In this document: one piece after another, positions 2,025 through 60,090 of the stretch
How the letters are laid out: each line of letters opens with the position of its first letter
How positions within the stretch are numbered: the stretch's first letter is position 1
Virus record (IMG/VR): IMGVR_UViG_3300028284_000001
Reading direction: 5' to 3' (one strand)
DNA: 64,000 bases
From: a virus
Translations under genes and position numbers: made by a program
The notes under the pieces: generated by a model
Database searches by the model: none
What the model was told of the DNA's origin: nothing
The model's input: the letters and a program-made list of their open reading frames with translations, nothing else

Positions 2025-3458
2025 TTATCCTAATGATGCTGTTAATGCACCGACAGCAGCTCCGTAATCGTCACCGTGCTTAGACAATAATCCGTCTACA
2101 ACTTCTTGTGCTTTTTCTTCGTCAAATTTATCACCGAAAGCTTTTCCTAAAACTGAGAAGGCATACTCTTTAAAATCTTCATCAGACTTTACTTCTGCTT
2201 CGTTAGTAGCTTCAGTTTCAGTTTCTTCAGTTGTAGCTTCAGTTTCAGTTTCTTCAGTTGTAGCTTCAGTTTCAGTTTCTTCAGCACCTTCTTCTACAAC
2301 TTCTTCTTCTTTAATAACTGGAAAGTTCTTACCATTAAATTCAAATTCTGCAGCATCTTCTTCAATTGCTTTAGCTCTTGCTGCTAAAAATGCATTGCCT
2401 TCGTTCATTACTGACTCGTTAGCCCATATTAATTCAAATGCATCTACTATTTTTTGTGCTTGTTGAGAATAACCAAATCCATCTAAGAATAAAGCCATAC
2501 CTTCAACAATACCGATACCAGACCATCCTGCAGCGTTAGCTAATCCAGAATAATGATTATCTAATAAACTCATGATTGATTTTTTACCAACTGGAACTTC
2601 TAAACCACCTAGGTTATCGATCTTTACTGAAACAGTAGTAATCTTACCACCAAGTGCTTTACTTACTGGATCTTTATATGAATGGAAGTTAGCGTCTGTT
2701 AAAGATTCTGATAATAAATATCTACAAACTCCTAATAAGAGCTGACCGTCCATTAATGCAGTGTGATTCGTAAAGAATGATTCTAACCATTTAGATACTT
2801 TCTTAGCATCTCTTAAATTACCCTTAGAAGGTTTAAATGATTCATTGATTATCATAGATTCAAATGCTGGGACTAAATCGTAACTATCATAAACATCAAC
2901 CATATACCATTTCTTATCTGTTTCAGAATATAGGTAGATAAATTCAGCTCCACCGTTATTAGCGGCATCTTTTACGAACTTCTCAGTATCTTTCATATCT
3001 CCGTCAGTAGTGGTCTTGTCGCCGTAGAATTTAATATCGTCTACATTTGCTTCTAGACCTGAACCACCCCCTTTCTTCAGTAGAGTGTCTACTGCCTTTC
3101 CATCTTTGTAACCCTTTTTAATTGTAGGTAACATGTGGTCTGGGTAACCATCATAGTGCATATACACTGTTGAGATTTTTCCGTTCTTTTTGATTTTACC
3201 GATTTGTGATCTTGTACCCTCTTCAATGATCGCTATTGATTCTGATATTTCAGAACTACCTAACTTTTGATAGAATGTATGTCTGTCTTCTTCTTTAAGT
3301 TCTTTAATAGAAGTTACTCCGAACTCTCCAAGTAGATTTTTAAACTGATCTGCAGCTACATTTCTTGCAGCTGATTGTTCTTCTTCTAATTTAGCGTTAG
3401 CTAGCTTTTTAGCACCATGTGCAAAATCTTCAAAAGATTGTAATTTTAATGATCCCAT
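2025..3458 (-). CDS. Multi-domain putative internal head polyprotein
   Basis: Domains GTRSQIG..YMHYDGYP, GNAFLAARAKA..FEFNGK and others separated by IIEE / IINE / VMNE / TNE; late motif upstream at 3493-3501. Confidence 0.6.
   Translation of the reverse strand: MGSLKLQSFEDFAHGAKKLANAKLEEEQSAARNVAADQFKNLLGEFGVTSIKELKEEDRHTFYQKLGSSEISESIAIIEEGTRSQIGKIKKNGKISTVYMHYDGYPDHMLPTIKKGYKDGKAVDTLLKKGGGSGLEANVDDIKFYGDKTTTDGDMKDTEKFVKDAANNGGAEFIYLYSETDKKWYMVDVYDSYDLVPAFESMIINESFKPSKGNLRDAKKVSKWLESFFTNHTALMDGQLLLGVCRYLLSESLTDANFHSYKDPVSKALGGKITTVSVKIDNLGGLEVPVGKKSIMSLLDNHYSGLANAAGWSGIGIVEGMALFLDGFGYSQQAQKIVDAFELIWANESVMNEGNAFLAARAKAIEEDAAEFEFNGKNFPVIKEEEVVEEGAEETETEATTEETETEATTEETETEATNEAEVKSDEDFKEYAFSVLGKAFGDKFDEEKAQEVVDGLLSKHGDDYGAAVGALTASLG
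2206..2284 (-). repeat. 27-bp coding tandem repeat, ~3 copies (TEETETEAT)
   Basis: gtagcttcagtttcagtttcttcagtt units start at 2206, 2233 and 2260. Confidence 0.9.
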
Positions 3459-15880: not shown

Positions 15881-18800
15881 TTATGACTTTATTTTTACCA
15901 TAGGTCTAACTTCGTAAGAGTAGCCTAATCTTTTATTATATATCAACCTAAAATTAAGAGGCTGTTGTTCGTGTGATTTAAACGTAAAGTTTATATCATT
16001 AGAGAATGCTCCATCGTCTAAATTATCAATGCTGTCTGTTGATAAAATTTCAGAGAATTGACCCTTTCTTCTACTTGTGTATAATTTTATTTGATCTAAA
16101 TTAAATGTATTAAGTAGGTTGTTTTCAACGTATAATAACGCATCATCTTTAGTTGTTGTTTTGTCACCTGCAGAATTAACAGCAGTTACAAATTTATTTA
16201 TTGAATTTAGTACACCATCTGAAGATAATAACTTCTTAAGCGTCGATGTAATATAAAAATCCATATAAATGTAATCCTTATTTTCAAATGATACTACATC
16301 ATACTTTTCATCACCGTTAGCTAAAATTCGATCTTGCTGTTCTTGTGTTTTAGTAGCATACGAAGTAAAGTTAGTAATATTATATGAATCTTTTATCTTC
16401 ATAATAGTAGAGCCTAAATAAGATCTTTCTTCTTTAGTTTCAAAAGTACCAGGTACTTGTTCAAATAAACCACCGGACAAACTTCTAGTATAATAGTTTT
16501 TATCCCAAGAAGACTTAAATACATTTATATCTTTTTTGTCTATTGTAACCTCACCGATTAAAGGATAAAGAGGTAATTTATCAGTAGACTCAGATAGTTT
16601 AGTTACTGCCGCAGCATTAGTTTCATTTACTTTTCTGTAAAAATGATTTTTAATAATACCCCATCCATTATCATGTATGTTACGATCTTGTATGTAACCT
16701 AAGTTAAATGAAGTTCCACATCTATTATATTTCTTATAGTAATCTCTAGCCAATTCAACTTCTTTAGCATTTGTTAATGAATGCTTATACATTGATTCTT
16801 CAAATAAGATTTCAGTTGGGTTAGCAGTAGACTGTAAAGTGTTTGTTTTAAAATGAGTATATGTGTCAGTAAAAGTTACAATCGGATTTGTTGATATTGT
16901 ATAATCACCATTATGTCTAACTAAGAATGGATAATATGTATCACTTACAGATAATTCGTAACCTATTGTACCTTGTTTTAATTTAAACGTTTTAGGCTTT
17001 TCTTCGTCTGACACTGTAACTAACATAGATTGTTTAATTACTTCTACTCCACTTTCGAATTGAATTTCAAATCTATTAGAATTAATAGCACCATCAATCT
17101 CAACTGTTGTATATTTAATTGAACCATCATTATTCTTTAATAAATCAGACACCGCTGATACTGACAGACTGCCTAAGATCGAAGTGAAGGCATTTTTACC
17201 CCCGCCTTTATATACATAAGTAGCAGACGTTTGAAGATAACCAGCAATATTAGAAACATTAACCGGGTTGCCGTTTAAATCAACAGGGGCTGATGTTAAA
17301 GTAAGTTGAGCTTGGTCATCAATAGATGCAATCTTTAATTTAAAAGTAACAGGACCACTCGAGTCTTGCACCGTTACATATATGTTTCCAAATACTTCAT
17401 TTTCATCTGGATTAATTTGATCTAAGAATTGAGGTAATCCCCCATCAACATGATCTATTCCACTCGCTATTAAATAATCAGCAGCAGTTGGATCTGTAAA
17501 ATTAATGTCATTCAGATTTAAAGCTCCGCTTATAGCAACGTCAGAATAACTAAAGTTTTCTGTCTCATGGTTCCATACAAAGCTGTGATTCATTTCATAT
17601 AATAGTTTCCTATTTAAAGCACCATCAATCCATAAATCATCCATAGATATTGTAATTAAAAATACAACAAATTCAAACTCCTTATTTTGAATAACTTCAT
17701 ATTCAATGTCGTTCGTAGCTTGTCCACCTCTAACCATAACTAAAGTACTAAACTTATAGCCATTAAATTCAGAAGATTTCACAAAATCATTAGTTGTAAT
17801 ATTTTCAAATTCTTTTCTATTCTTAAAAGAAACTTTAATACCTTTAAATAAAGTACTACCAAACGATGCGTCGTTACCGCCTGAAACATTTGTATATTTC
17901 TTTTGTAAATTTGTTTTAATAAAAGATTTAATACCGTTACTATCAGTTTTCTCAAAACCTTCAGTTACCATAAATCTATCAAAGTAATTATATGAAGTGC
18001 TCTTAAAGTGAGATGCATTTAATTCAAAACCTTCTAAGAAGTTTACATAACTAAACGTATCATTAAGCTGATCGTATTTTAAATATTTTGGTACATTATC
18101 TAAATAAAACCACTCATGTGTCATACCTAGTCTATCTCTACCTTCAGCATCAAAATCTGGTGAGAAGTTAGTTCTTCCAAATGCTTCGTTTGAGTTTAAA
18201 TGATAACCCTCTTCTCTTACAGTCGTACCATCTTTTAATACCCACTTGTTAATATTAGGAGTTACTCTAGATCTTACTGCAAATTGCTTAAGATTATTTT
18301 CTTGTAATCTATCATATTCACTCCATAGTTTAGATTCGTTATATGAATCCAATCCTTCTTCTGGTAAAATACCTCCAATACCAGTAAAGTAATTAACAGG
18401 CTCATCTTCAAATTCACTATCGAAAACGGTTAATGTGTTAGTAGTACTTTGTTGAGGTTCATAATTAATATTAGCCGGAGTTTCAAATTCTAATTCTTTT
18501 AGATCTGAATTTGATATATCATAAAAATCAAAATCCATATCATGAATATCGTACGCTGAAAATAAACCAATCCTAGCAACATTATCTGCATATACATTTT
18601 GCTCTCCAGAAGCTAAAGTGTTTATGTCTTCTAAAATAATTTTATTGTATATAGTATCAGCTCTTTCTATATCTTCCACTATATCAATAACTTTGTTGTA
18701 CACATTGTCTGAATTTGTAGCAATTAAATCACCAACATTAATGTCAGCAACAGAATCTTTAGTTACTAATATAGATTTCCCAGCAGAATTACCGCCGTTC

Positions 18801-21800
18801 ATATAGTACACTTGATTTACATTAAATATAACATCGCTTAAATTAAGCAATCCATTTGTATTAGCATTTGTTATAGAATCTCTATTGTTTACATCTAAGA
18901 AAACAGCAGAGTTTGCATTAGGAATTAAAATACCTGATTGTAATCTTCTATAACCTTTAATATTTGATTTGACATAAAAGTAATCAGCACCATCTTCAAT
19001 AATAGCCGTAAAATCAATAGGACTATTATTAACACATTCCGTAATTGCTTTAGCAATATCAGCAAAGTTACCTTGAGATGAGAACGAAGTGCTCTCGTAT
19101 GTACCTGATGGTAAAACTGGCGAAGCAAAGAATGTTGAATTATCTAATTTAACGCTTGTTTGAATTTCAGACACTTTAGCGATTGTACTTGAAGTTAAAG
19201 GAACCGTAGCTTCAAAAGATATTTCTAAATCTGAAAGAGTTGCATACTTATCTGTAATATAAATAGTTTTATCTATATCAGATCTTTCTATTTTAATACC
19301 AGCACTATTACCGTCTGGGTATAAGTTTTGAATAGTATCAAATGTATCTGAAAGAGTTGTTCCCGTAGCTATTACGTGTTCAATTGGAGTACCTCCTTGT
19401 ATATTTAGCTTTAACTTCCAGCCTTCACCTGCAATATGTCTTAAGAATTTAATAGAATATGCAGATTCTTTAGAATCAAAAATTACAAATCTATCATTAG
19501 ATTGTGGAATTCCAGTTACCTGTACTTTATTAAAATCAAAACCTGCTGAATCTTCTTTAATAACATCTATAGAGTTACCATTAGCAGCTAGTTTTATTTC
19601 AGAAGAAATACTATTATCACTATCTTCTACAATTACATTTAAACTGCTAGTCTCATAAGCAGCCCTAGATGATATTTTATAGAATGTATCACTTACCGCA
19701 ACATAACCTAAAGTTGGAGTTCCGGAAATATGTTTGAATGAAGGTATTGCAGATTCTGGAGAGTCATTAATATCAGAGCTTAAAGTCTTAAATATAATGT
19801 TTCCATTTTCTGCTGTAGATATACTACCACTTCCTGAATCAATATCGTTTACATAAAGTCCAAAATATCTATTAATAGAATAATCAGAAGCGCTGTTATC
19901 ATCAAATAAGAATTCTAAATTAATAAGATTTGCACATGCTAAGTTGTTTCTTTGAAAGCCATCACTAATAATTTGATTACTAGCAATTAATGGACTATCA
20001 TTTCTTACAAAATCTTGATATAAAAATTCAGGCTTTGATGCAAATCCGCCTTTAACTAAATCAATACCTCTGAAATTTGATTTCTCACCTTTAGCAAAAT
20101 TAAATTGTATTGGCGATTTAGGGAATGCTTCTGCATTAACGTGATTTCTAATATATTTACCTAAAGAAGATTCTGAAGTTAAATCAAATGTCTTAACAAT
20201 CTCAGAGTGTTTAAGTATATCTTGTATGTTTTCTAAATTAGATCTATCGTCAAAATCTAATTCTCCAACTGGATCGTTAACTCTAAATACTACAAATTTC
20301 TTAGGAACTTCTTTATCCAACCAGATTGGAGCTAACATTCTAAAATCTTCATCATGAATTTTAGAGTAATTATATGTAGTACCATAATGATACACTTCTT
20401 CTATTTGCTTATTGAAACTATCTTGAACTGAATAGTCAGAATAATCTGATCTCGTAGCAAACATTATATCTCCTGGCGTGTAGTTAGACTTATAGAATCT
20501 CTGTAAATCATAAGACCATTTACCTGTAGCATTAAGTTCCCATTTTTTATATTCAATAGATGCTAATTCTTTTGTAGCATCAATTGATTCAATAAAGATC
20601 TTATTAGAACTATTAGCAACTAATTTTGCATTAGTAGATAATTTAGGGTTTGTTCTTAACAATGGTTTAGAAACGTTATCCAACGTGTAGTTTGTTTCTA
20701 AATCAAAATTAGGTAAATTTCTATTTGTAATTATTGCATTATCAAGCGTTGGAAATGTATAAGATAGCCATGTTCCAGTTTCTGAATCACACAAATAACA
20801 AATGCTTCCATTTGCACTACTTTCTACAATATCTTGTTGATATAATACCGTTGAGTTACTACCAAATCCTAAATCAACCGGGTTGATAGATATTGGTTTT
20901 AAGTCAACATCTAAATTTTGTTGATATGTTCCTATTTCAACTTCTAACTTGTCAATTGCATCTTCAATGTTAGTTGCTATAATTCTATTAATATAGGTAT
21001 AACAATTACCATCTACTTTAATTTGCGCACGTTCTCCTAAGTTTAAAACATCTGAAGTTCTAAGAGTTTTAATGAAATCTAAAATATAAGAAACATCATC
21101 TCCGGATTCTGATGCAAAATGTAAACCATCTATTACATATAATGGGAAATAAGGCTGGGTTCCAGTAGTTAATCCCGGATCTAATTGAGCTTCACATCCA
21201 TAAAAAACATAATACATCGATTTAGAAGAATCGCTTTCTAGCCCAATCGTAGTATCATTTGGTGGTCCTATAATAGGCAAATCTAAAAGAGGCCTTACGT
21301 AATCGGCGTTTGGCAAACCAATGCCGTCACCACAACCTCCTAATATAGAGCCTACGTTTGCAATTTCCAATACATTGTCTGAATCAAAACCGTACCACCT
21401 GGTCGATCCTGCATATCCAGTTGCATTATCATTATCCCATACTACGAAACCTCCTGTGGTAGCGTCTAATATCACTGAACTAGGCTGTAATAGTGTATAA
21501 TCTAGAACAGTAGCTCCTCCTTGTGTAGCAAAGACTCTAACTTGTTTTTGGGCTAATTGTAATAATGTATAATCAGGTGATGTTCCATTAGGATCTGGTA
21601 TACCATTACCATCTAATCTTGGAGATCTATACCATATAATTATGTCATCAAATAATGTATTAACATCTGCCCATGTTTGGTAAGTTCCGAATACATTACA
21701 TACCGACCCAATATCTGTTGGATCTGGCGTAAACCATTTTACAGAAAGCCATTTAGTATCATATACTGTTGCAGGAACACATTCAAATAAATTTGGATCA

Positions 21801-24088
21801 GGTGCACCAGACACTCCATTTGCTAGCCAAATGCCGGCGTCGACAATATAGTATTGTAATGGACTTTGTTGTAACGCAGTATCTGTATATGAACCGCTCG
21901 GTGCTAATTGTTCTGATGGCGCAGTAGATCCTGAATAAGAATTTGCTACAGCTTCACTTGAAAACAATTGACCATTTGCCGCAACAACGTCTGATAGTGT
22001 AGTGTTAAAACCACCACTATTAAGTTCTCCAATATTTTGCCAAACCTCAACTTCAACCACAGACGACTCATTATCACATAATGGACCATAGTTTTCTTCA
22101 TAAGATACTAGTATTGGCCATGCGCTACCAGTCGTAACATTACAGTTTACAATTTCTTCAAGAGTTGCCCCAGAAGATATCTTTATAGCTCTTACTGTGT
22201 TGTTTGCAGTTTCTTCAGCAGAAAGCCATGGCGATCCTGCACTAAAAAAATTAACAGGTACTGTTAGAGCTTGATCTTGGTATAGTTGATAACCCGGTCC
22301 TATTGGTAAATCCGATAAGAACGTTGAAAAAGCAGCTAAATTTGTATTAGCACTAGTATCATACCAGTATTCTAATGGACCTCTAGTTAAATTACAAACA
22401 GTAGTGCTTGAGTTTCCAAAATTAGAAACCAATACTTTTCTAGAAGCAGCTGCAGATGATTCAAAAGTAAATGTTATATTTTCACTAGCATCATATCCTC
22501 CGTAAAAATCTACTACTTTAAGAGTTACACTAATACTATTAGAGACTGCCGTTGCTGTCACCGAAAGTATTCCGGTAAATGTGTTATATGCTGCATTAAT
22601 TGGACCCGATTGACTCTCGATTGAGACTGTTACATCATGATTTTCAGCATCATTTGTTGTAATTGCAGCACTCTCCCATTCCATACCAACTGCCATTGAT
22701 ATTGTACTAGGAGGTGATATTGTAAACGTAGGAGCAGCATTACTAGGAGTTAGTACCTGTATTTGTATTTGACCTATATCAGTTAAACCATACTCATCCG
22801 TTGCTCTAAAATAAAATACTTCAGTTTGTGATGAATCATTTGGGGTAAGATCTACACTTGTTGTATACGTAAAACCCTCTGTAATATTTGGAGTTGGAGC
22901 AATAGCTCCCGCTTGTAAGTTTTGGTTTATCTGAGCAAGTGTTATTACATTACTTCCGTTCTGGTCATCAACCCAATCGTATGTTACAGTTGGAGTATTC
23001 TCATCAGTTGCCGTTCTTTGAAATGATGTTGTATTACCATTTTGCCCCTGTAATGAAACACTAACAGGATTTGCACTTGGTGCTACGTTAGCAGGATCAT
23101 TAACTGTAATTTCTACTTCCGCAGCGAACAGTTGTTCTTGCCCGTTTGAATCTTCCGCTTTATAGAAAAAAGCATCTGTGTTTCCACCTGCAAATGAATT
23201 ATTTGGGTAATATCTAATTTTTAAGGGATCTGCGCCCGTAATTGTAGTAGGGGTTGTTGTAATATCAACTCCCTGTAATGTTTTAAGCGTTCCATTCGCA
23301 GGAAGCGCTGTTATGTTTATTGTATAACTTTCTGATTCAGGCTCTGTAACATGCTGTGAAAAATCTATTTCCTTAAATGAACTGCCATCTCCGGCATTCA
23401 CCATATTAGTAATTACATTATTACTGACCGGTGGTAGATTAACACTACTATCAGTAATAGTAACTGTTACAGTACTGTTTCCAGTGTTTGTCACACCGTT
23501 AACATCAGCAGCATCTAATACTAATTCAAGAATTTCATCACCTTCATTAAAAGAAATGTCTTCTGCAATACTAAAACTTTGAGACCAATTACCCGAAGAA
23601 AAAGTTCCGGAAGCTACCCAATTGGCTGGGACCACTAAATCGTTGGCATCTATTGTAGTATTAGCACCAAGAGTCCAGCCTATACTATCAAGTGTTCCTC
23701 CTGATGGGTCTGCATTTACTACAAAATTTACTGTAGTTCCCTCATTTGTTGATGAAATATTACCGGCAGTTTCTAAAACATAAATAGGATCTGGGGGAAG
23801 TGTCGTAGTCGTAGTTACAGGCGATTGGACGACACCTACATCACTAATCTGTACTACATAGCCAACAGTATTTATAGAGTACCACCAGTAATCATCACCT
23901 CCAACTACTTCGTTACCCGTAGTTAAGCCTGCATCTGTAAATAATACGTCGCCAGCTTCTAGATCTGTGCTACTTCCTTGTGCCGCCTCGTCAAAGTGAT
24001 ATGTTATAGTATTTACACTTCCAGGTCCGTTTGTCCAAGCACCCGCTTCTGTTGTGTACCCACTATTATGAAATATAATTTGTGCCAT
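15881..24088 (-). CDS. Giant (2735 aa) virion/baseplate protein with N-terminal Ig/cadherin/Calx-beta-like repeats
   Basis: NEG.TV.F, EGDEILEL.L, N.AP, F.Y.A.D motifs in the N-terminal ~1100 aa; late motif at 24126-24134. Confidence 0.65.
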   Translation of the reverse strand: MAQIIFHNSGYTTEAGAWTNGPGSVNTITYHFDEAAQGSSTDLEAGDVLFTDAGLTTGNEVVGGDDYWWYSINTVGYVVQISDVGVVQSPVTTTTTLPPDPIYVLETAGNISSTNEGTTVNFVVNADPSGGTLDSIGWTLGANTTIDANDLVVPANWVASGTFSSGNWSQSFSIAEDISFNEGDEILELVLDAADVNGVTNTGNSTVTVTITDSSVNLPPVSNNVITNMVNAGDGSSFKEIDFSQHVTEPESESYTINITALPANGTLKTLQGVDITTTPTTITGADPLKIRYYPNNSFAGGNTDAFFYKAEDSNGQEQLFAAEVEITVNDPANVAPSANPVSVSLQGQNGNTTSFQRTATDENTPTVTYDWVDDQNGSNVITLAQINQNLQAGAIAPTPNITEGFTYTTSVDLTPNDSSQTEVFYFRATDEYGLTDIGQIQIQVLTPSNAAPTFTISPPSTISMAVGMEWESAAITTNDAENHDVTVSIESQSGPINAAYNTFTGILSVTATAVSNSISVTLKVVDFYGGYDASENITFTFESSAAASRKVLVSNFGNSSTTVCNLTRGPLEYWYDTSANTNLAAFSTFLSDLPIGPGYQLYQDQALTVPVNFFSAGSPWLSAEETANNTVRAIKISSGATLEEIVNCNVTTGSAWPILVSYEENYGPLCDNESSVVEVEVWQNIGELNSGGFNTTLSDVVAANGQLFSSEAVANSYSGSTAPSEQLAPSGSYTDTALQQSPLQYYIVDAGIWLANGVSGAPDPNLFECVPATVYDTKWLSVKWFTPDPTDIGSVCNVFGTYQTWADVNTLFDDIIIWYRSPRLDGNGIPDPNGTSPDYTLLQLAQKQVRVFATQGGATVLDYTLLQPSSVILDATTGGFVVWDNDNATGYAGSTRWYGFDSDNVLEIANVGSILGGCGDGIGLPNADYVRPLLDLPIIGPPNDTTIGLESDSSKSMYYVFYGCEAQLDPGLTTGTQPYFPLYVIDGLHFASESGDDVSYILDFIKTLRTSDVLNLGERAQIKVDGNCYTYINRIIATNIEDAIDKLEVEIGTYQQNLDVDLKPISINPVDLGFGSNSTVLYQQDIVESSANGSICYLCDSETGTWLSYTFPTLDNAIITNRNLPNFDLETNYTLDNVSKPLLRTNPKLSTNAKLVANSSNKIFIESIDATKELASIEYKKWELNATGKWSYDLQRFYKSNYTPGDIMFATRSDYSDYSVQDSFNKQIEEVYHYGTTYNYSKIHDEDFRMLAPIWLDKEVPKKFVVFRVNDPVGELDFDDRSNLENIQDILKHSEIVKTFDLTSESSLGKYIRNHVNAEAFPKSPIQFNFAKGEKSNFRGIDLVKGGFASKPEFLYQDFVRNDSPLIASNQIISDGFQRNNLACANLINLEFLFDDNSASDYSINRYFGLYVNDIDSGSGSISTAENGNIIFKTLSSDINDSPESAIPSFKHISGTPTLGYVAVSDTFYKISSRAAYETSSLNVIVEDSDNSISSEIKLAANGNSIDVIKEDSAGFDFNKVQVTGIPQSNDRFVIFDSKESAYSIKFLRHIAGEGWKLKLNIQGGTPIEHVIATGTTLSDTFDTIQNLYPDGNSAGIKIERSDIDKTIYITDKYATLSDLEISFEATVPLTSSTIAKVSEIQTSVKLDNSTFFASPVLPSGTYESTSFSSQGNFADIAKAITECVNNSPIDFTAIIEDGADYFYVKSNIKGYRRLQSGILIPNANSAVFLDVNNRDSITNANTNGLLNLSDVIFNVNQVYYMNGGNSAGKSILVTKDSVADINVGDLIATNSDNVYNKVIDIVEDIERADTIYNKIILEDINTLASGEQNVYADNVARIGLFSAYDIHDMDFDFYDISNSDLKELEFETPANINYEPQQSTTNTLTVFDSEFEDEPVNYFTGIGGILPEEGLDSYNESKLWSEYDRLQENNLKQFAVRSRVTPNINKWVLKDGTTVREEGYHLNSNEAFGRTNFSPDFDAEGRDRLGMTHEWFYLDNVPKYLKYDQLNDTFSYVNFLEGFELNASHFKSTSYNYFDRFMVTEGFEKTDSNGIKSFIKTNLQKKYTNVSGGNDASFGSTLFKGIKVSFKNRKEFENITTNDFVKSSEFNGYKFSTLVMVRGGQATNDIEYEVIQNKEFEFVVFLITISMDDLWIDGALNRKLLYEMNHSFVWNHETENFSYSDVAISGALNLNDINFTDPTAADYLIASGIDHVDGGLPQFLDQINPDENEVFGNIYVTVQDSSGPVTFKLKIASIDDQAQLTLTSAPVDLNGNPVNVSNIAGYLQTSATYVYKGGGKNAFTSILGSLSVSAVSDLLKNNDGSIKYTTVEIDGAINSNRFEIQFESGVEVIKQSMLVTVSDEEKPKTFKLKQGTIGYELSVSDTYYPFLVRHNGDYTISTNPIVTFTDTYTHFKTNTLQSTANPTEILFEESMYKHSLTNAKEVELARDYYKKYNRCGTSFNLGYIQDRNIHDNGWGIIKNHFYRKVNETNAAAVTKLSESTDKLPLYPLIGEVTIDKKDINVFKSSWDKNYYTRSLSGGLFEQVPGTFETKEERSYLGSTIMKIKDSYNITNFTSYATKTQEQQDRILANGDEKYDVVSFENKDYIYMDFYITSTLKKLLSSDGVLNSINKFVTAVNSAGDKTTTKDDALLYVENNLLNTFNLDQIKLYTSRRKGQFSEILSTDSIDNLDDGAFSNDINFTFKSHEQQPLNFRLIYNKRLGYSYEVRPMVKIKS

Positions 24089-37877: not shown

Positions 37878-39161
37878 TTATTGGGGCATCTTCAAAAACA
37901 CCTTCATTGTACCTTCATCAATCCTAGTAATTTGAACAGTGATCTTGTCACCAGGGTTAAATACAGTCATTGTTTCTTCTCCAATCTCACTAACGTGTAG
38001 TAATCCAGTTACACCATCTTCAATATTAATAAACAAACCATAGTCTTTTTTAGACTTAACAGTTGCTTCTACCACTGATGGTATTGAGTATCTAGTAGAT
38101 ATGTTAATCCAAGGATTAACTTCTACGACATCCTTCTGAGTTAACGTAATTTTATTATTACTAATAATATCTTTTACTTTAAACGCAATAGCATCTCCTG
38201 GTTTAATCTCTCTAGCTTTGAATTTAGTTAAAGTATCTTCGTCTAAGTCGTTGTTGTGAATCATACCTGTTAAGCATTTATCAAATTCAACAAATACACC
38301 ATACTTAGCAGTTCCAGTTACTAGACCCTGCTTATCTTCAGAAATACTTTCTTTTAAATTATCTATAGCTTGTGGTATAAGTGCTTGTAAGTATTTTCTA
38401 TGTGATACTACAATCGTGCCTCTGTCTGCTGAGAAGCTTACTGGTACAACATAAATTTCTTCACCTATAATAGAACTAAAGTCTGATAGTTTATTAATAC
38501 CTGCAAGTGAACCTGGCATAAAGCAATTAATACCCTGTACTTCTACAACGTATCCGCCATTTTCAATCATGTTCTTTACAGTACCGATCCATGCAGTTCT
38601 ACCTTCCTCAATTCCATTTCTTAAATCTGTGAATGTTTTATGCTTAATACCACCAGTAATAGTTCCTGCTAGTAATCCTTTTGTTTCTGTAATTAAGACT
38701 GCAGTCTCATCACCAACCGAACTAGCTTTTACAATATCAGATTCTTTACCGAAGTTAACGTAAACTAATTCTCTATAACCAACATCAACTGTGATATATT
38801 GTTGATCTATTCCGTAAATAATACCTTCATGGATTTCACCCTCATTAACATTAGGTTTTATATCTTGTCCAAACTCTTCCATTGTATCGTAGAGTTGCTG
38901 CGCATACGGCTCTCTAGAAAATACCTTATCACCATCTTTAGTTTTAATATGTGGGTTTGGTTTTCTATACCTAGTTGGGCATGTGCTTTCGTAAGCATCC
39001 CATAGGAACTCTCCATTTTCATCGTAAAATTCGTCGTGTTGTCCAACAACTTCTTCTGGCTTTGTGGTTGCCGTTGTTGTTTCTTGGTTTGTAGTTTCTT
39101 CTTTAACTACGGTGATTGTTGCATCGGAAGTATCTCCGATTCGTTTTCTCTTCTGAGTCAT
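37878..39161 (-). CDS. rpsA: Ribosomal protein S1 homologue, four S1 domains
   Basis: EGEIHEG..VDVG, GGYVVEVQGINCFMPGS, YGVFVEF..GMIH, DYGLFINI..GLLHVSEI; N-terminal EFLWDAYE. Confidence 0.85.
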   Translation of the reverse strand: MTQKRKRIGDTSDATITVVKEETTNQETTTATTKPEEVVGQHDEFYDENGEFLWDAYESTCPTRYRKPNPHIKTKDGDKVFSREPYAQQLYDTMEEFGQDIKPNVNEGEIHEGIIYGIDQQYITVDVGYRELVYVNFGKESDIVKASSVGDETAVLITETKGLLAGTITGGIKHKTFTDLRNGIEEGRTAWIGTVKNMIENGGYVVEVQGINCFMPGSLAGINKLSDFSSIIGEEIYVVPVSFSADRGTIVVSHRKYLQALIPQAIDNLKESISEDKQGLVTGTAKYGVFVEFDKCLTGMIHNNDLDEDTLTKFKAREIKPGDAIAFKVKDIISNNKITLTQKDVVEVNPWINISTRYSIPSVVEATVKSKKDYGLFINIEDGVTGLLHVSEIGEETMTVFNPGDKITVQITRIDEGTMKVFLKMPQ

Positions 39162-53341: not shown

Positions 53342-53971
53342 TTAAAACTCAAATGGGATATAATCATCATCTTTATCCATACCGTACCAGACACCTTTGT
53401 TTTGCCAGTAGATCCATCCATACTTATCGTCGATAACTACTTCAAACTTACCCTTTGGCATCTCCACGCTCTTCTTAGGAGCCCTGGCGATATGCTTAAG
53501 TACAGGTACACCATCTTCCCATGTTTTCTTAGTAGATCTAGCATCAACTATTGCGCCATCACCAAATCCATGGTGAAATTCAGCACCTTCGATCTCATCA
53601 GCTAATAACATAGTCGGAGTTTTATCTGATTCATTAACTACTGATTCGTTTTCAGGCATTACTCTTTTATACTTAGCTTGTAATTCTTTAAATTCATCTT
53701 TAAGGTTAGAAGAGATTTTCTTCTTAATACCCCAGTTATCTCCAAAGATTAGTGGAGCTACAGCGCCCATACCAGCAGTCTTAACTTGCTTCTCGTATTT
53801 TCTAGCATAAGTAGAGCTATCAAACCAGTCTAATGCAGCCTGAGCCATATCCTTAGATATCTTAACACCTTCTATTTCAGAAGTACTACCTTTAACTACC
53901 ATTTTAAATAGAGTTTTAGCAGGAGCTTGTCTTGCCTCATTTAATTCGTTTATTGACTTGATATATTTCAT
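53342..53971 (-). CDS. Two-domain putative internal head protein
   Basis: Leader MKYIKSINELNE; internal NESVVNE linker. Confidence 0.65.
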   Translation of the reverse strand: MKYIKSINELNEARQAPAKTLFKMVVKGSTSEIEGVKISKDMAQAALDWFDSSTYARKYEKQVKTAGMGAVAPLIFGDNWGIKKKISSNLKDEFKELQAKYKRVMPENESVVNESDKTPTMLLADEIEGAEFHHGFGDGAIVDARSTKKTWEDGVPVLKHIARAPKKSVEMPKGKFEVVIDDKYGWIYWQNKGVWYGMDKDDDYIPFEF

Positions 53972-53978
53972 AATTATA

Positions 53979-54656
53979 TTATTCTTTTCCAGCTCCCCAA
54001 GCTTCTTTTAATTCTTCAATCTTTTTAGAATAAGATTCTTTCATCTCATTACAGATTGCTTCATACATTTCTTGAGTCATATCTTCATCTTTAACTTCAC
54101 CATAACCTTCTTCCATTGCAGTTGCAGCAAGAGTAGCTACAAGTGCAGCATTTTCTTTCATATACATTTCTAAAGTATGATCTTGGTATTCATCTTTTTC
54201 ATAAGCACATGCAGCTTCAGAAACTTTACCATAACCTTCTGATAACATTTCTTCTACTGTAGCAGATGTTTCAGCAGGAGCAGCAGGCTCTTCAGCTTCT
54301 ACTTCTTCAGCTTCTTCAGAATCATCTTCATCATCTTCATCATCAGAATCATCTTCGTCATCAGAATCATCTTCATCATCGTCATCATCAGAATCTTCAG
54401 CAGCAGGCTCTTCAGCTTCTACTTCATCAGAATCTTCATCTTCTACTTCATCAGAATCTTCATCTTCTACTTCATCAGAATCTTCATCTTCTATTTGTTC
54501 GTCAGGTAATTCAGACGTTTCTTCGCATTCTATGCAGTTACCCTCTTCGTCGGTACCACATGGACACTCTTCGTTCTCTTCTTCAGAGATTTCATTTTTA
54601 GCATCTGCTTTTATAGTTTCAGAATACTCTTGAAATGATAATATTTTTTTAGCCAT
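53979..54656 (-). CDS. Highly acidic putative scaffold/internal head protein
   Basis: Leader MAKKILSFQEYSE; long D/E tract. Confidence 0.65.
   Translation of the reverse strand: MAKKILSFQEYSETIKADAKNEISEEENEECPCGTDEEGNCIECEETSELPDEQIEDEDSDEVEDEDSDEVEDEDSDEVEAEEPAAEDSDDDDDEDDSDDEDDSDDEDDEDDSEEAEEVEAEEPAAPAETSATVEEMLSEGYGKVSEAACAYEKDEYQDHTLEMYMKENAALVATLAATAMEEGYGEVKDEDMTQEMYEAICNEMKESYSKKIEELKEAWGAGKE
54417..54493 (-). repeat. 24-bp coding tandem repeat, 3 copies (EDEDSDEV)
   Basis: ttctacttcatcagaatcttcatc at 54417, 54441 and 54465. Confidence 0.9.
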
Positions 54657-54682
54657 GTTATATGTTTTTTATATTTATTATT

Positions 54683-55390
54683 TTAATGTGTTATTGTATG
54701 AAAAGGTACATCGATCTTACTGTAGTCTACTAGAATACCTTCTTCAGTATGTCTTAATACATCTTCAAATCCTAGCCTCTGTAAATCATCTACCATTGTA
54801 CCGATAAATGTTCCCTTACCATTTGTTTCGTCTTTATAGTTGAAGTGGTACATTGGAATTCCCATTGCAGATGCCCCTACTAATTTTATATTATCTTTTA
54901 AATGTCTTTCAGATTTACCTTCATACTGTAATTGTGTTCCCTCTTGCTGTACATCCACATTATGAGAATCTCCATCTTGTAGGGAATGAACAATATTACC
55001 AGTGTATGCAATATTTGCATATCTCCATGCCGTATTAGTACCGCCATTACTTGTTACTGTAAAGACAAAATTACCAGTACGAGATACTGTATCTACTGTC
55101 CATGTAGTTGGGTTTATAGACATCCATGACGGCATATTTATATCAGATTCTTGTGGAGTCTGTCCACCGCCGTCTCCTCCCCATTCAAAATATGCACTGT
55201 AGTTACTACCTCCGGCAATTAAGAATTCATGGTCTAAAGTACTAACATTATCAACAGGACTACCTGCAAAATTTATCCAATTAAACCAACTGTCTGCCAT
55301 CGCGTTTCCAGGATATTGATAGTTAAGTATTGTTTTAGTTAACCCATCAGGGCTAACCGCTATTAAGTATTTTATATTTGGATTTGACAT
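54683..55390 (-). CDS. Fibre-like protein with BACON-like domain and C-terminal S74 intramolecular chaperone
   Basis: PSWMSI..FTV..N..R.A.I..V.V.Q; SERHLKDNI..YHFNYK..G.M...VDYSKI. Confidence 0.7.
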   Translation of the reverse strand: MSNPNIKYLIAVSPDGLTKTILNYQYPGNAMADSWFNWINFAGSPVDNVSTLDHEFLIAGGSNYSAYFEWGGDGGGQTPQESDINMPSWMSINPTTWTVDTVSRTGNFVFTVTSNGGTNTAWRYANIAYTGNIVHSLQDGDSHNVDVQQEGTQLQYEGKSERHLKDNIKLVGASAMGIPMYHFNYKDETNGKGTFIGTMVDDLQRLGFEDVLRHTEEGILVDYSKIDVPFHTITH

Positions 55391-55404
55391 CTTGTTATTT
55401 ATTA

Positions 55405-56742
55405 TTAATTTCCACTTCCATCAGTCCATTCTATAGAACCGTCTCCAGCAATAATACCGTTATTAGCATCAGTATCATTCCATGCCGTAGACGTTACAAT
55501 TCCGGTAATTGGATTGTCATTAAGTTGTTGTGTATCATTAGTTGCACCCATTGAATCATTTGACCAGTAAAAAGTTCCCGGTACGTCAACTGCAATTAAT
55601 TCTAGTGTTAAAGAATCCGCCGGACTATTTAAGCCTTGTACTAATATGCTTTGTTGTGGACCTACCATACCAACGCCAGCATTATTCCAACTATATCTTT
55701 TAACATTTCCGGAACTAGTTGGGCTTCCTAGTAAAATAGAATTATTTACATCGTTATATCCAAATTCAAGACCGCCAGAAACTGAATCATCACTAATCAC
55801 AAAGTTTACAGACGATAACAGTGTATTATTACTATCACTATCTGTTGCATCAAAATTAATTACGAAAGTTTCAGGGCCTTCTGTTAAACCATCCGATGAT
55901 ACTTGAATCATTAAACTCGCAGTATTGTTTGTAAATACAAACGGAGATGGGCTTACTTGTGTATCATCATTACCCCAATATGAAGAATTAGATCTTACAA
56001 AATCACCAAAATCAATAAAGCCACCGTTATGTGTAATCGTGGAACCTATTGATGTACCATCAGAGACTGGATTACTAGCATTAATAGTTATAGTAACAAA
56101 AGAATTTCCATCGTTTGTTTCACTAGGGTTTCCATCATTAGCTGGCCCTCCTGTTAATACTACGCTATACAAAGGACCTCCCTGAAATTGCTGAACTACC
56201 AACGTTTCCGGTCCTAAAGTTGTACCAACTCCAGTTCCCTCGGAATTAACAGCATACGCTGTATAATAATAATCGCCAGTCGCGCTGACTGTATGGGATA
56301 AAGTATAACTTCCTAAAGAAGTTCCACCTGCAGCTACTTGTGCGTTTTGAGTATAATCTGAATTTGTTCCTATATAGAAACCTCTTTGTGTAATAGCGTT
56401 ACCATTAATAGAATCAATACTCCCGTTTAAGTCAAGATCATTATTTACAACATTTGTCGCCTGGATTGTTGTAACAGATGGAGATGAATTACCTAAACCA
56501 GATTGAGTAACTGTAAAAGATTCTACAGTAATATTATCGGAATGAGTAACTGTACATGTTGCAGTTCTTTCAGCACCAGGGTTATCTGCAACTAAAAAAT
56601 CCCAAGTATCAGTGTCAACACCGTTACTATCTTGAGCATTTGAAATAGTTATCCAATCAGCATTAGAATCACCAGATTTACTCCATGAATATGAATCATC
56701 TACTGGGAATACTGTGATTGTTTTTTGATGTGTATATGGCAT
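55405..56742 (-). CDS. Virion decoration/adhesin: BACON + FN3-like + Calx-beta-like domains
   Basis: DWITIS..NPGAERTAT; PSVTT..ITQRGF..YYYTAYAVNSEG; DGLTEGPETF; late motif 56763-56771. Confidence 0.7.
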   Translation of the reverse strand: MPYTHQKTITVFPVDDSYSWSKSGDSNADWITISNAQDSNGVDTDTWDFLVADNPGAERTATCTVTHSDNITVESFTVTQSGLGNSSPSVTTIQATNVVNNDLDLNGSIDSINGNAITQRGFYIGTNSDYTQNAQVAAGGTSLGSYTLSHTVSATGDYYYTAYAVNSEGTGVGTTLGPETLVVQQFQGGPLYSVVLTGGPANDGNPSETNDGNSFVTITINASNPVSDGTSIGSTITHNGGFIDFGDFVRSNSSYWGNDDTQVSPSPFVFTNNTASLMIQVSSDGLTEGPETFVINFDATDSDSNNTLLSSVNFVISDDSVSGGLEFGYNDVNNSILLGSPTSSGNVKRYSWNNAGVGMVGPQQSILVQGLNSPADSLTLELIAVDVPGTFYWSNDSMGATNDTQQLNDNPITGIVTSTAWNDTDANNGIIAGDGSIEWTDGSGN

Positions 56743-56785
56743 CTCTTACTTTCTTTGTTTTTTTATATATCTTCCTAATATAGTA

Positions 56786-58837
56786 TTACAGGGTTTCAAT
56801 TGCATTATCTTTCATCCACTTCTCTAGTTTCTCAACAGCAATATTAAATATTTTACTTCTGTTAATAGACATTCCAAATGAATTAAAGTATTCTTTCATC
56901 ATATAGTATGCTGGTTCTATCTCTTCTTTATTAGCAATTCGATCTTGGATATGTTTACTAACCTCATACGCAGCTTCAGCACCTACAAACACAAAAGCAG
57001 TATAACCTGTTAAGTCGTTCCAATGTAGATCTGATAATTTGTAACCTATTTCACCTAGTTCTTTTTTTCTTGCAGCTGTATCGAATTTACGATCTCCCAT
57101 TTGGTTTAACCAAAAAGACATGTAGTTAGATTCTTTACCATACATCTTTTCTACAAATCCTCCAGCAACAAGTTCTTTTATTTTAACTCCAATATACTTA
57201 GGGTATTTAATCTTTCCATACTGCTTAATAAATCTATCGTATTCGTAGTTACCGAAATATTCATTAAGGGTTTTAACAAATCCACTTTTAACAACTACTG
57301 TCTCATTTGCTTTTCTCATATCAATCCAAACTCTAATAATATCTGCATAGTCTTTAGAAGTTAAGCCCTCTTTTTCACCATGTGTAGTTTCACTATTACG
57401 ATCCCACATTTTTTGAGCAAAAGCATCGATGTTACCTTCTTTAAAAGTCATAACAGCTCTTTGAGTACCATTATCTAATAATTGAAATGTTTCTTCTTTT
57501 TCATCATGTGGATCTAATCTCCAACCAGCTGAATTATTAACTCTAATATCTAAACCACTAGAGTTACTATCAACCACAACAGTCCAAGGACCTTCTGATT
57601 GATATGTTTTACCTTTTTTATATTTGATTTTACCTTCATTAACTGATTCTTTAAGACCTAATGCTTTATTAACTAGATCTTCAATCACACTAGAGTAATC
57701 ATCCTTTAAAGCCCATTTAATTGTTTGGCCTTCACTTCTTGCTTTCTTGTTTATCCATTTAAGGTGTGTTGCATCAGTAAGAAAATCAGAAGCTTCTTTT
57801 GCAATTCCTTTTGGATCTATTTTCCATTCATCAATTGTAGTACCAAAGTTATTACCGTATGTAGAACCATTAGTTCTTTTAAGGTTATTGATTCCACCAA
57901 TCTTAATGTATATGTCATTATTAATAGGCATTGCTTCAAAGAAAACTACATCTCTTTCTTCTGGGTTGTTTTCACCAGATACTTGATCGATAGCATAAGT
58001 ACTATGAACTCTCCATGTAGGTTCGCCTTTTACATTGTACGCTGCTGAGTGTGTATCTGCACCGAATTCAGAAGCCTTTAACTTATATGCTTTAGCTTCG
58101 TTAACTGATTCAGTAAATCCTCTTTCTTTAGCATCATTCTTTACCCATTCTCTATCTTTAGATGAAAGCTTTTTAAAATCTTTATCAAATTTATGATGTG
58201 CAATTAATTCATAAACATCTTCTAATTCTACTGACTCGCTAAATAGAGTTTCTCCAGTATTAGACTCAACACTTATTACAGCATTAGGATATTGTTTTTG
58301 TAATTCATTAAATACGGCAGGAACCGCAGCTGGTGTATCAACTAATTCTTGTTTAACAACCATACCACTATTAATTACTACAATACTTACAGGATAACTT
58401 CCTTTCTTTGCAGCTTTATGGATTGCGCCTCTTTTAGCTTCACCTATTGGTTTAATGTACTTCATTTGGTTTGACTCTTTCATAGCGTCTATTTCTTTTG
58501 ATTTTTCAATTGCCCAATCAACACCTTCATCTCCACCCCAGATTAACCAGGCTACGTAGCCTCTGTCTTTCCATGGAGTTGCTTTTAATTCAGGTTTGAT
58601 TGATGAGTTTTTTCTGTGTCTATTGAATGCGGACATTCTTTTAACTGTATCTGTACTAAGGTTTTCACCTTTAGCCAGTTGATGAGCTCTTGCCCAACCT
58701 ACTGGAGTTCCAGCATCAACTTCGTCTCTACCATGTTCCTCTTTCCAGTCAATTGCCTTTTGAGCATTCTTCTTTGCAGCAGCAGGATAGTCATTCCAAG
58801 TATCTTCTTCGTTTAATACAGATTCTATGTACTTCAT
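56786..58837 (-). CDS. Multi-domain putative internal head polyprotein
   Basis: Leader MKYIESVLNE, internal MKYIKPIGE, two ESVNE and one KTLNE linker; first domain GTPVGWARAHQLA..AWLIWGG. Confidence 0.7.
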   Translation of the reverse strand: MKYIESVLNEEDTWNDYPAAAKKNAQKAIDWKEEHGRDEVDAGTPVGWARAHQLAKGENLSTDTVKRMSAFNRHRKNSSIKPELKATPWKDRGYVAWLIWGGDEGVDWAIEKSKEIDAMKESNQMKYIKPIGEAKRGAIHKAAKKGSYPVSIVVINSGMVVKQELVDTPAAVPAVFNELQKQYPNAVISVESNTGETLFSESVELEDVYELIAHHKFDKDFKKLSSKDREWVKNDAKERGFTESVNEAKAYKLKASEFGADTHSAAYNVKGEPTWRVHSTYAIDQVSGENNPEERDVVFFEAMPINNDIYIKIGGINNLKRTNGSTYGNNFGTTIDEWKIDPKGIAKEASDFLTDATHLKWINKKARSEGQTIKWALKDDYSSVIEDLVNKALGLKESVNEGKIKYKKGKTYQSEGPWTVVVDSNSSGLDIRVNNSAGWRLDPHDEKEETFQLLDNGTQRAVMTFKEGNIDAFAQKMWDRNSETTHGEKEGLTSKDYADIIRVWIDMRKANETVVVKSGFVKTLNEYFGNYEYDRFIKQYGKIKYPKYIGVKIKELVAGGFVEKMYGKESNYMSFWLNQMGDRKFDTAARKKELGEIGYKLSDLHWNDLTGYTAFVFVGAEAAYEVSKHIQDRIANKEEIEPAYYMMKEYFNSFGMSINRSKIFNIAVEKLEKWMKDNAIETL

Positions 58838-58840
58838 AGG

Positions 58841-59155
58841 TTATTTATCGCCCTCTTCTTTTTTAGTTTCTTTAGCACTTCTAATCTGAGCTTTCTTAAC
58901 TTCTACATTCTTCTTAATTGATTGCTTTTGAGCTTCAGCCTGCGCAAGTTGTACTTTCATCTTAGCAAGAGTACTTGACATTTTATCAGTAACTTTAGGC
59001 GATTGAGATAACTCTTTAGCCTTATTAGTTTCTTTCTCAATTTTGTCGTACTGTTTAGTAATAACCTTGTTAATCTTTTTAACCTTCTTTTTAATGTTAG
59101 GTTTATTCTTACGATTTTCACTAGTAAAATCTTCAAGTAATTTTATATGCTTCAT
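58841..59155 (-). CDS. Basic coiled-coil protein with MKHIK leader
   Basis: MKHIKLLEDF; Lys-rich. Confidence 0.65.
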   Translation of the reverse strand: MKHIKLLEDFTSENRKNKPNIKKKVKKINKVITKQYDKIEKETNKAKELSQSPKVTDKMSSTLAKMKVQLAQAEAQKQSIKKNVEVKKAQIRSAKETKKEEGDK

Positions 59156-59397
59156 TAGAGTTGAGTTCTTTTGATTTTATTGATCTTAAGATCTACTCTT
59201 AACATCTCCATCTTTAAATCTTCTTTTTGTAAACTAAGATTTAATAATTCATTTTTAACAGGATCCTTTTCATCTCCAAGCTTATCAGTAAGATCCTTCA
59301 TTTTATCATGAGTATCTTTAATCTTACCTTGAAGATCTCTAATCTTAGTATTATACTCAGCCTTGGTAGATTCGTATAGTGGTTTTATATGCTTCAT
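59155..59397 (-). CDS. Small coiled-coil protein with MKHIK leader
   Basis: MKHIKPLYES. Confidence 0.65.
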   Translation of the reverse strand: MKHIKPLYESTKAEYNTKIRDLQGKIKDTHDKMKDLTDKLGDEKDPVKNELLNLSLQKEDLKMEMLRVDLKINKIKRTQL

Positions 59398-60074
59398 AGT
59401 CTAAATCCTAAATGTTTTGCACGAGCTTCCCATTTAACTAGGACTTCTGCTCTTTCTTTACTATTTATCTCCCCCATCTCTTCTTTTGAGTCTAGGTATC
59501 TATTTACAGCATCAATAGTCTTCTCACCTCTCTTCTTAGCCTCAAATCTTAAGCCTTGTAGATTTGCATCAACTTCTTTAGGTAGGAGTAAATAATGCAT
59601 CTTTGGTAACATGCCATTATTAATTAAAGCTCTCATCATATCATCTGGTTCATTAGGTTTACCCTTTCTATAATTACCAATGTCAATACCATCTTGAGTA
59701 ATATGTTCAATCTCATGCCTTAAGACATCTGCTAAAACAAAGTAAATCTCTTCCCAATAAGTAGGTAACCAATCTGGATTACAAGCAAAATCTATATTAA
59801 TAAATGGATCTTGCCAATCACCTTCATCATCTTCATCTCTGCCATCAGCTCCAGTTGAATTTAGGACTTCAAATCCCTTGCCTTTAAAATAAATTGAACA
59901 GTTTAGGTCAAATGTAAGACCTGGGTTCTGTACTTCAAATGAGTAACTAGAAGATTTTTTGCCGTTCTCAAAATCTAATACCCACTGTTTAAAACAATCA
60001 CCTAATAATTTATTAGAGATAGAATCTAGTTTTGTATATCTTTCAAATATAGCCTTTGATTTAATATGCTTCAT
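59394..60074 (-). CDS. Zincin-like metallopeptidase with MKHIK leader
   Basis: HEIEH (HExxH) plus downstream Y..L.KEVDA third-ligand motif; late motif 60078-60086. Confidence 0.7.
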   Translation of the reverse strand: MKHIKSKAIFERYTKLDSISNKLLGDCFKQWVLDFENGKKSSSYSFEVQNPGLTFDLNCSIYFKGKGFEVLNSTGADGRDEDDEGDWQDPFINIDFACNPDWLPTYWEEIYFVLADVLRHEIEHITQDGIDIGNYRKGKPNEPDDMMRALINNGMLPKMHYLLLPKEVDANLQGLRFEAKKRGEKTIDAVNRYLDSKEEMGEINSKERAEVLVKWEARAKHLGFRL

Positions 60075-60090
60075 TTATTATATATCAAAC

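Follow-up and report, generated by a model that had tools for sequence, protein, structure and literature searches.

We analysed a 64,000-nucleotide stretch of viral DNA (IMG/VR virus record IMGVR_UViG_3300028284_000001, hereafter the window), in which one open reading frame (ORF), P0001, appears to encode a polyprotein built from exchangeable modules. The source of P0001 is a large uncultured marine T4-like phage; the window has a G+C content of 33%, and nearly all of its genes lie on the minus strand. P0001 starts with a 10-residue leader, MKYIESVLNE, which resembles the capsid-targeting sequence (CTS) of phage T4 and is followed by six modules, A to F.

Module layout of the polyprotein gene

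The features of P0001, in the order of translation, are as follows (aa, amino acids; pLDDT, predicted local distance difference test score):

56786–58837, minus strand: polyprotein ORF (P0001), open, with an ATG start, 683 aa
58808–58837, minus strand: N-terminal leader MKYIESVLNE, aa 1–10, with the T4 CTS layout; predicted cut after Glu10
58466–58807, minus strand: module A, aa 11–124
58439–58465, minus strand: KYIK-type linker MKYIKPIGE, aa 125–133, a full-length leader copy with an ATG at 58465; predicted cut after Glu133
58229–58438, minus strand: module B, aa 134–203, a small alpha/beta domain (pLDDT 75–87) whose C-terminal end is the degenerate junction SESVE
aa 199–203, minus strand: degenerate B/C junction SESVE
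58112–58228, minus strand: module C, aa 204–242, a two-helix mini-module of about 40 aa
58097–58111, minus strand: first ESVNE linker, aa 243–247; predicted cut after Glu247, exposing AKAYKL
57650–58096, minus strand: module D, aa 248–396, a compact domain, found elsewhere as a standalone gene of about 160 aa with its own leader
57635–57649, minus strand: second ESVNE linker, aa 397–401; predicted cut after Glu401
57275–57634, minus strand: module E, aa 402–521
57260–57274, minus strand: linker KTLNE, aa 522–526; predicted cut after Glu526, the next residue being Tyr
56789–57259, minus strand: module F, aa 527–683, all-helical (pLDDT about 90), the constant C-terminal anchor of the family

All of the motifs named in a preliminary description of this locus (MKYIESVLNE, MKYIKPIGE, SESVE, both copies of ESVNE and KTLNE) were found at these positions. 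In the T4 CTS, positions 4 and 7 serve targeting and positions 8 and 10 serve processing (IPIII; PMC9026906), and the leader of P0001 follows this rule, with hydrophobic residues at positions 4 and 7 (I4, V7), together with L8 and E10. The two ESVNE linkers (gaatcagttaacgaa and gaatcagttaatgaa) share 14 of their 15 bases, which bears out the near identity at the DNA level that had been noted for them. The six segments, which had been described as mutually unrelated, indeed show no similarity to one another beyond the linker residues (all pairs E > 0.1). Five of the six boundaries fit the pattern hydrophobic-x-Glu, the exception being the junction between B and C, where the residue at P3 is Ser. 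LFSESVE, which had been listed among the linkers, is thus present as a sequence but does not fit the cut-site pattern and represents a degenerate junction; because SESVE fails the hydrophobic-x-Glu rule, B and C may stay joined after processing. In the 20,574 aa encoded by the minus-strand ORFs of the window, the linker pattern ES[LIVA][LIVA]?[NTD]E occurs four times, compared to 0.52 expected (at most three in 200 shuffles), and all four copies are confined to two proteins that also bear an MKYIK leader.

In a full-length AlphaFold2 model (82-sequence alignment, mean pLDDT 60), the stretches with a pLDDT below 50 include residues 1–18, 119–134, 203–221, 239–298, 391–405 and 511–526, which cover every linker, while modules B (75–87) and F (about 90) are modelled with confidence. 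When module D was modelled alone with its flanks, it gave a compact core (model residues 16–161; pLDDT 71.6, predicted template modelling score 0.71) between two disordered ESVNE linkers. The linkers therefore all lie in low-confidence inter-domain stretches of the models, outside the folded domains, as had been predicted.

Searches for the identity of the modules returned little. Foldseek found no match for the full model in the PDB at E <= 0.001, and the best hits of a wide VIA-align search, with Z 7.7 for module B (RbcS-like small alpha/beta) and Z 5.7 for module D, are within the range of common arrangements, so that no function was assigned. No above-threshold Pfam match was found in P0001, the sensitivity of profiles being limited for small divergent domains; when the neighbouring genes were included and PHROGs was added, the only useful matches were PHROG 2859 for module A, and the BACON and S74-chaperone domains of downstream fibre-like genes. 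Module A belongs to a widespread, head-associated type of domain, known from other phages as a fusion partner of portals, prohead proteases and capsid proteins. Its structural look-alikes are fused to portals and S78/ClpP prohead proteases in many phages, and these fusions fit a location in the capsid interior; an Atlas feature search for module A gave only the lead DUF6321, under 0.9. Among the modules of the relatives, only DUF5824, one GNAT, NUDIX and UPF0227 were recognised. In the phage collection, megablast with 8 kb of the locus found no match, and tblastn with P0001 found module A only, in unrelated phages. P0001 also differs from a gp22-like scaffold protein, which is a long, acidic coiled coil, conserved and essential, with its gene beside those of the protease and the capsid protein: P0001 consists of small globular modules strung together, and its locus is hypervariable and distant from the head module.

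Mosaic relatives and the correspondence of leaders and linkers

Relatives of P0001 were found in the same syntenic slot of seven IMG/VR loci, with products ranging from 160 to 1247 aa. Their similarity to P0001 falls into blocks corresponding to modules A (aa 5–136), B (131–203), C (205–246), E (about 393–520) and F (521–683). One locus (L001) has a colinear B-D-E stretch without C, and module C occurs elsewhere in two others (L002 and L007). Module A is internal in six of the relatives' proteins, at positions 165–877. L007 encodes A (228 aa) and F (160 aa) apart from each other, both genes starting with an MKYIK leader of their own. When 5.8 billion proteins were searched, the family grew to 649 relatives of 375–1196 aa and 348 shorter ones. 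An assembly chimera was ruled out because hundreds of independent metagenome proteins carry the family.

We cut 134 relatives at the linker pattern and clustered the pieces. This yielded about 70 module families with tight length distributions, which are combined in about 70 architectures (71 when the leader and short pieces are counted, 67 by module families alone), so the homologues are not colinear, in agreement with the modular organization proposed initially. Most of the variation consists of the gain, loss or replacement of units inside a frame that is itself conserved (leader, module 3, A ... F). Upstream of module F, 23 different neighbours were counted, and downstream of modules A and B there are 9–10. 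Module pairs were also seen in both orders, as had been anticipated, but in only 8 of the 317 co-occurring pairs. True reordering of modules hence exists and is a minority of the variation.

We then examined where the similarity between relatives breaks off. With one representative set per architecture, 33% of the internal homology ends lie no more than 3 aa from a pattern-defined linker, compared to 4% of random positions, and the median distance from a homology end to a linker is 11 aa, compared to 41 aa for random positions; in this statistic, the high-scoring segment pairs are not independent, and the linker pattern misses some linkers, such as KTLNE. Breakpoints are thus found at the ESxNE linkers, where they had been predicted, and at the KYIKPLNE linkers. 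The clearest view of the scissile position is after module A, where the compared loci keep the linker KESKQ[MLF]KYIKPL[NH]E and then continue with seven unrelated modules, the similarity stopping at the Glu. The further proposal that the linker DNA itself serves as a recombination joint was not supported, as the linker codons vary synonymously about as much as the background, except that Ser is always encoded by TCN (AGY in 0 of 50). Between linkers of one gene, Val and Asn codons agree no more often than expected; only Glu codons, and to a smaller extent Ser codons, do so. The codon analysis neither shows nor excludes a microhomology-mediated joining of linkers, and homologous recombination in the conserved flanking modules, together with selection for in-frame cleavable junctions, explains the breakpoints equally well.

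Module D illustrates how such a unit behaves. When compared alone with 1.84 billion cluster representatives, it matched in 31 clusters only, and in 24 of the 27 representatives examined the match covered at least 146 of its 147 residues. The proteins that contain it are 166 to 1531 aa long, and it starts anywhere from position 14 to position 769. Regardless of the upstream sequence, hydrophobic-x-E/A[KR]AY.L (a slash marks the predicted cut) stands directly before D in the 22 closest matches, and in most fused forms the module ends with ..NK[SA]LG, followed by a new ES-type linker. The standalone D proteins, of about 160 aa, begin with MKxxKxFxxF[LI]NE/A and stop at ..LVNKALG, immediately before the position of the next linker. 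Their leader closely resembles the T4 CTS, which is MKTYQEFIAE, and falls column for column on ..ERGFTESVNE/AKAYKL of the polyprotein in an alignment. The predicted mature N-terminus, AKAYKL, is alike for standalone D behind its leader and for internal D, so that leader and linker are equivalent at this position. Together with the separate genes for A (including the 228-aa gene of L007) and F (the 160-aa gene of L007), standalone homologues, which the preliminary description had called for, are now found for three of the modules. Another phage contig carries four consecutive separate genes (L041:8001–10118), each starting with MK[HS][IV][KR]LFE.[FY]..E, and the first of them is a standalone D; this array is the unfused counterpart of the polyprotein.

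The internal MKYIKPIGE, which had been regarded as a fossil leader, belongs to a second, full-length class of linkers. Its first residue is M, L or F in relatives and thus does not mark a conserved start codon, and the term "fossil" does not do justice to how well it is kept: this is a conserved and probably functional linker class that follows module A in nearly all of the relatives. An internal translation start at Met125 is unlikely as a conserved feature, given that Leu or Phe is found there in relatives. The N-terminus of P0001 itself (MKYI-ESVLNE) looks like the product of a deletion, in which the leader was joined to the ESVLNE linker that precedes A in relatives and module 3 was removed. 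Judged by their sequences, the linkers appear to be leader remnants, some of them kept at full length (KYIKP[LI]xE) and others shortened (ES-V-(x)-N/T-E, K-T-L-N-E).

Cut-site signature, protease and genomic context

The linker logo was built from 143 unique ES-type and 43 KYIK-type contexts, selected by a pattern that itself demands Glu at P1 and a hydrophobic residue at P3. P1 is accordingly Glu by definition, and P3 is V, L or I in 99–100% of the contexts, within the allowed set. At P2, we found N, T, D or S in the ES-type linkers, where this is required by the pattern, and N, H, S or G in the KYIK-type linkers, where the position is unconstrained; the likewise unconstrained P1′ is occupied by A, G, E, S or Y. 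Independently of the pattern, the flanks of module D were found through homology, and in the 22 closest matches they have Glu at P1. The gp21 protease of T4 cuts after Glu in L/I-x-E and was first seen to act at a glutamyl-alanyl bond; Asp at position 10 of the T4 leader prevents processing and leaves targeting intact. The linker sites match the gp21 specificity.

No head genes were present among the 36 ORFs scanned in the window, and the search for an S77 protease was extended to related contigs, being negative in five and positive in two of five further ones. One of these (G006) carries a helicase 85% identical to that of the window and has the same synteny of acidic-protein, 209-aa leader-protein, deaminase and helicase genes. 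Its head module encodes a T4-type gp20 portal (Portal_T4, 1e-72), a 112-aa leader protein, a 728-aa S77 protease (Peptidase_S77, 1.7e-12) and a gp23-type capsid protein (Gp23, 1e-46). A T4-type S77 prohead protease is thus present in the lineage. The hydrophobic-N-E sites of the polyprotein linkers occur in the proteins of this head module too: the protease (L040:7543–9729) has KRVNE/S directly after its catalytic domain (residues about 1–165), and the capsid protein begins with MANLINE/A...TGINE/SAKLA. The protease has an acidic, coiled-coil, scaffold-like tail of about 560 aa with 14-aa EDEAGEGAEEVVDE repeats, and its hydrophobic-N-E sites are at residues 165–167, 360–362, 596–598 and 699–701. 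From its sequence, the 728-aa gene looks like a fusion of protease and scaffold.

P0001 is the fourth of four tightly packed leader genes (59394–60074, 59155–59397, 58841–59155 and 56786–58837), and this set is immediately preceded by a terminator-like hairpin and a GATATATAA motif. From 53342 to 60074, five ORFs begin with MK[YH]IK and have hydrophobic-x-Glu within 8–12 residues. The features of this region outside P0001, with all of the sites of the motif in the window, are:

60078–60086, minus strand: late-promoter-like motif GATATATAA, directly upstream of the first leader gene
59394–60074, minus strand: leader-tagged 226-aa protein with an HEIEH motif, first gene of the operon
58841–59397, minus strand: two small leader-tagged genes, for an 80-aa coiled-coil-like and a 104-aa Lys-rich protein
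53342–53971, minus strand: 209-aa leader-tagged protein with leader MKYIKSINELNE and one internal NESVVNE linker (cut site NESVVNE/S)
3493, 7905, 9609, 15936, 24126, 39206, 39274, 56763 and 60078, all minus strand: GATATATAA sites

None of the nine copies of GATATATAA in the window, compared to 2.1 expected, lies off the coding strand, and most stand shortly before a gene; we tentatively read the motif as a candidate late-type promoter. The HEIEH-motif protein is present in all eight compared loci and corresponds in relatives to the C-terminal part of a 337-aa protein (L001–L003) or of a 639-aa leader polyprotein (L005). It had no family match in Pfam or PHROGs, and its Atlas leads (LPD23 and SprT-like, 0.85–0.86) are below the reliable range. 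The 209-aa protein is a two-module mini-polyprotein with 75–89% identity in relatives L001–L005. Next to its gene, and always adjoining it, is the gene for an extremely acidic 225-aa protein (53979–54656, minus strand) with DEDSDEVE-type repeats and a conserved C-terminal part of about 90 aa, whose start, MAKKILSFEEY, resembles an aromatic-type leader. Two further ORFs each have one ES-type linker under a slightly looser pattern, namely 2025–3458 (minus strand, 477 aa, start MGSLKLQSFEDF) and 37878–39161 (minus strand, 427 aa).

Between the acidic-protein gene and P0001, two hypervariable leaderless proteins (54683–56742, minus strand) are encoded under their own GATATATAA motif at 56763–56771: one of 445 aa with a BACON domain and one of 235 aa with a He_PIG domain and an S74 intramolecular-chaperone domain. 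They look like fibre or surface-binding proteins, and each relative has different genes in their place. A single ORF of 2735 aa occupies 15881–24088 (minus strand), with a GATATATAA motif upstream. Elsewhere, the window encodes baseplate proteins (gp25, a gp6-like wedge and a hub), gp32, UvsW-like and SNF2-type helicases, dCMP deaminase and UvdE; no ribosomal genes, nor others of host type, were seen in it. In the phage collection, the best match of the helicase is an uncultured 462-kb phage (46% identity), followed by Lak phages at about 30%. The related IMG/VR contigs, of 60–101 kb, are rated 19–33% complete, which implies genomes of roughly 270–310 kb.

A probable cargo polyprotein, with proposed processing in the prohead

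Taken together, we consider it likely that P0001 is a capsid-targeted cargo polyprotein, from which the prohead protease releases five or six proteins by cutting after Glu. Such a gene would have arisen by the head-to-tail fusion of small cargo genes, each with a T4-type targeting leader ending in hydrophobic-x-Glu; after fusion, the first leader would have remained at the N-terminus and the others would have been retained as cleavable connectors. We infer that the gene is expressed late, together with the structural genes, that the leader brings the entire chain into the core of the prohead, and that an S77 protease like gp21 of T4 cuts there after the Glu of each exposed linker. This would release in the head the products A (11–133), B, with or without C (134–247), D (248–401), E (402–526) and F (527–683), which presumably would be ejected with the DNA, like the internal proteins of T4, and may act as effectors. 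Evolution of the locus proceeds by the gain, loss, replacement and occasional reordering of modules between an N-terminal frame (leader, module 3 and A) and the C-terminal F.

Several observations weigh against this cargo polyprotein. The S77 protease was not found in the 36 scanned ORFs of the window and was seen only on a related contig, and no cultured relative was found in the phage-collection searches. The B/C junction, SESVE, is outside the site pattern, and the short pattern hydrophobic-x-Glu occurs 19 times in P0001, mostly within modules, so the choice of sites must depend on their exposure. Modules A, D and E were only moderately or poorly modelled in the full-length prediction. The family and fold searches gave no assignable function for any module of P0001, so that "effector" is said by analogy, and the constant modules (3, A and F) could be structural and not injected.

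One alternative is that the chain stays uncleaved, like beads on a string, with at most the N-terminal leader removed and the linkers being fusion relics that act as flexible spacers, which would make P0001 a single multi-domain internal head protein or other virion protein. Unprocessed packaged multi-domain "polyvalent" phage proteins are known, such as the N4 virion RNA polymerase (PMC5512222), the cleavage of P0001 is inferred, and the SESVE junction has already decayed. However, relic spacers should decay, while Glu at P1 and a hydrophobic P3 are kept wherever module D is found by homology, whatever its neighbours, and also across the 143 ES-type and 43 KYIK-type contexts, which were selected by a pattern requiring both; moreover, the AKAYKL N-terminus is alike in standalone and internal D. 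An uncleaved chain hence seems unlikely to us. The linkers could also be repeated motifs for capsid targeting or scaffold binding, which would anchor the chain to the prohead core at several points without being cut. A single stretch of 10 residues holds both the targeting and the processing information in T4, and the KYIK-type linkers are complete leader copies. The commonest linkers (ESVNE and ESVVTE), however, keep only the processing half, without aromatic or hydrophobic residues at the T4 targeting positions, and P1′ is small (Ala, Gly or Ser) in most linkers, as at gp21 sites, which makes this role of the linkers quite improbable.

We give very little credence to cutting by another enzyme or at another time, for example by the leader-tagged HExxH protein (59394–60074) in the head or after ejection. 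This protein is encoded by the first gene of the same operon, was found in each of the compared loci and is fused into leader polyproteins in some relatives; its weak Atlas leads have been given above, and zincin-mediated processing of polyvalent proteins has been proposed by Iyer et al. (PMC5512222). Against this, no family match backs its assignment as a peptidase, and the conserved determinant of the sites, Glu at P1 with a hydrophobic P3, is the signature of an S77 protease, whereas P1′, which is usually important for zincins, is variable. In addition, the N-terminal leaders end in this very site, which is also found in the capsid protein and in the protease itself in the relative.

The closest known system to the proposed cargo polyprotein is that of the T4 internal proteins IPI, IPII, IPIII and Alt, with their CTS and the S77 protease gp21. 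Both have leaders of about 10 aa that carry L/I-x-E at positions 8–10 and a hydrophobic residue at each of positions 4 and 7, with the cut, here a predicted one, after Glu and often before Ala; both have cargo that is unrelated beyond the leader and encoded in a hypervariable gene cluster, and an S77 protease, gp20 and gp23 in the lineage. Unlike T4, which has one cargo per gene and one leader, the present family has up to about ten cargo units per ORF (up to 1247 aa among the fetched loci), internal linkers that look like leader remnants, and a set of units that differs between close relatives, giving about 70 architectures. The giant phages phiKZ, 201phi2-1 and SPN3US have the gp21-related proteases gp175, gp268 and gp245. 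As proposed here, a gp21-related protease in these phages recognises three residues ending in Glu (A-x-E in SPN3US) and cuts behind them; one protein can have several such sites, and the substrates include ejection proteins. In contrast, the reported cuts in SPN3US, the one of the three phages that was checked, remove N-terminal propeptides (which may fragment further) and leave one mature product, not arrays of interchangeable modules that fold independently and also occur as standalone genes.

The polyvalent proteins (Iyer, Burroughs, Anand, de Souza and Aravind, 2017) are likewise mosaic and rapidly shuffled, are thought to be delivered with the DNA and are possibly processed. They differ in having catalogued effector domains (MPTase, ParB-like, ART, SNF2, LPD families and others), two or more per chain, and a proposed in-chain zincin, whereas the small modules here are mostly of no known family and are joined by standardised sites of the prohead-protease type, apparently derived from targeting leaders. 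The T4 core proteins gp22, gp67 and gp68 also have several L/I-x-E sites that are cut by gp21 in the prohead, but their fragments are scaffold debris that mostly leaves the head, unlike the folded domains with standalone homologues described here. Viral polyproteins in which one ORF yields several proteins, cut by a viral protease at stereotyped sites, are familiar from picornavirus-like RNA viruses and from the dsDNA African swine fever virus (pp220 and pp62). There, the components are essential ones of replication or of the core, and neither their set nor their order changes, while P0001 is a variable cassette array in a tailed phage. A full-text literature search found no description of CTS-linked cargo polyproteins, which is not proof of their absence.

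More tentatively, the locus may be a standardised capsid-cargo cassette system, in which one tag and a universal protease-site connector load exchangeable, equimolar small injected proteins. Anti-defence would be a candidate role by analogy with the T4 internal proteins, each of which has been found to inhibit GmrSD restriction enzymes specifically (PMC12373910; three proteins), and the connector might double as a capture junction for standalone leader-gene cassettes. If so, the system would be a protein-level analogue of the integron and a natural template for multi-cargo phage delivery vehicles; one tag with standard cut sites is the design that engineers of T4-based delivery vectors build by hand. 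The textbook way for a phage to inject proteins alongside its DNA is the T4 capsid-targeting leader with gp21 processing. If many such cargoes are indeed joined in a single cleavable chain in this lineage, the conserved linker rule would predict, directly and testably, the specificity of an S77 protease from a group of uncultured phages. The roughly 70 module families could then be read as a list of candidates for injected factors whose mature ends are exactly defined, and large marine phages would inject proteins in a far more elaborate and plastic manner than is known.

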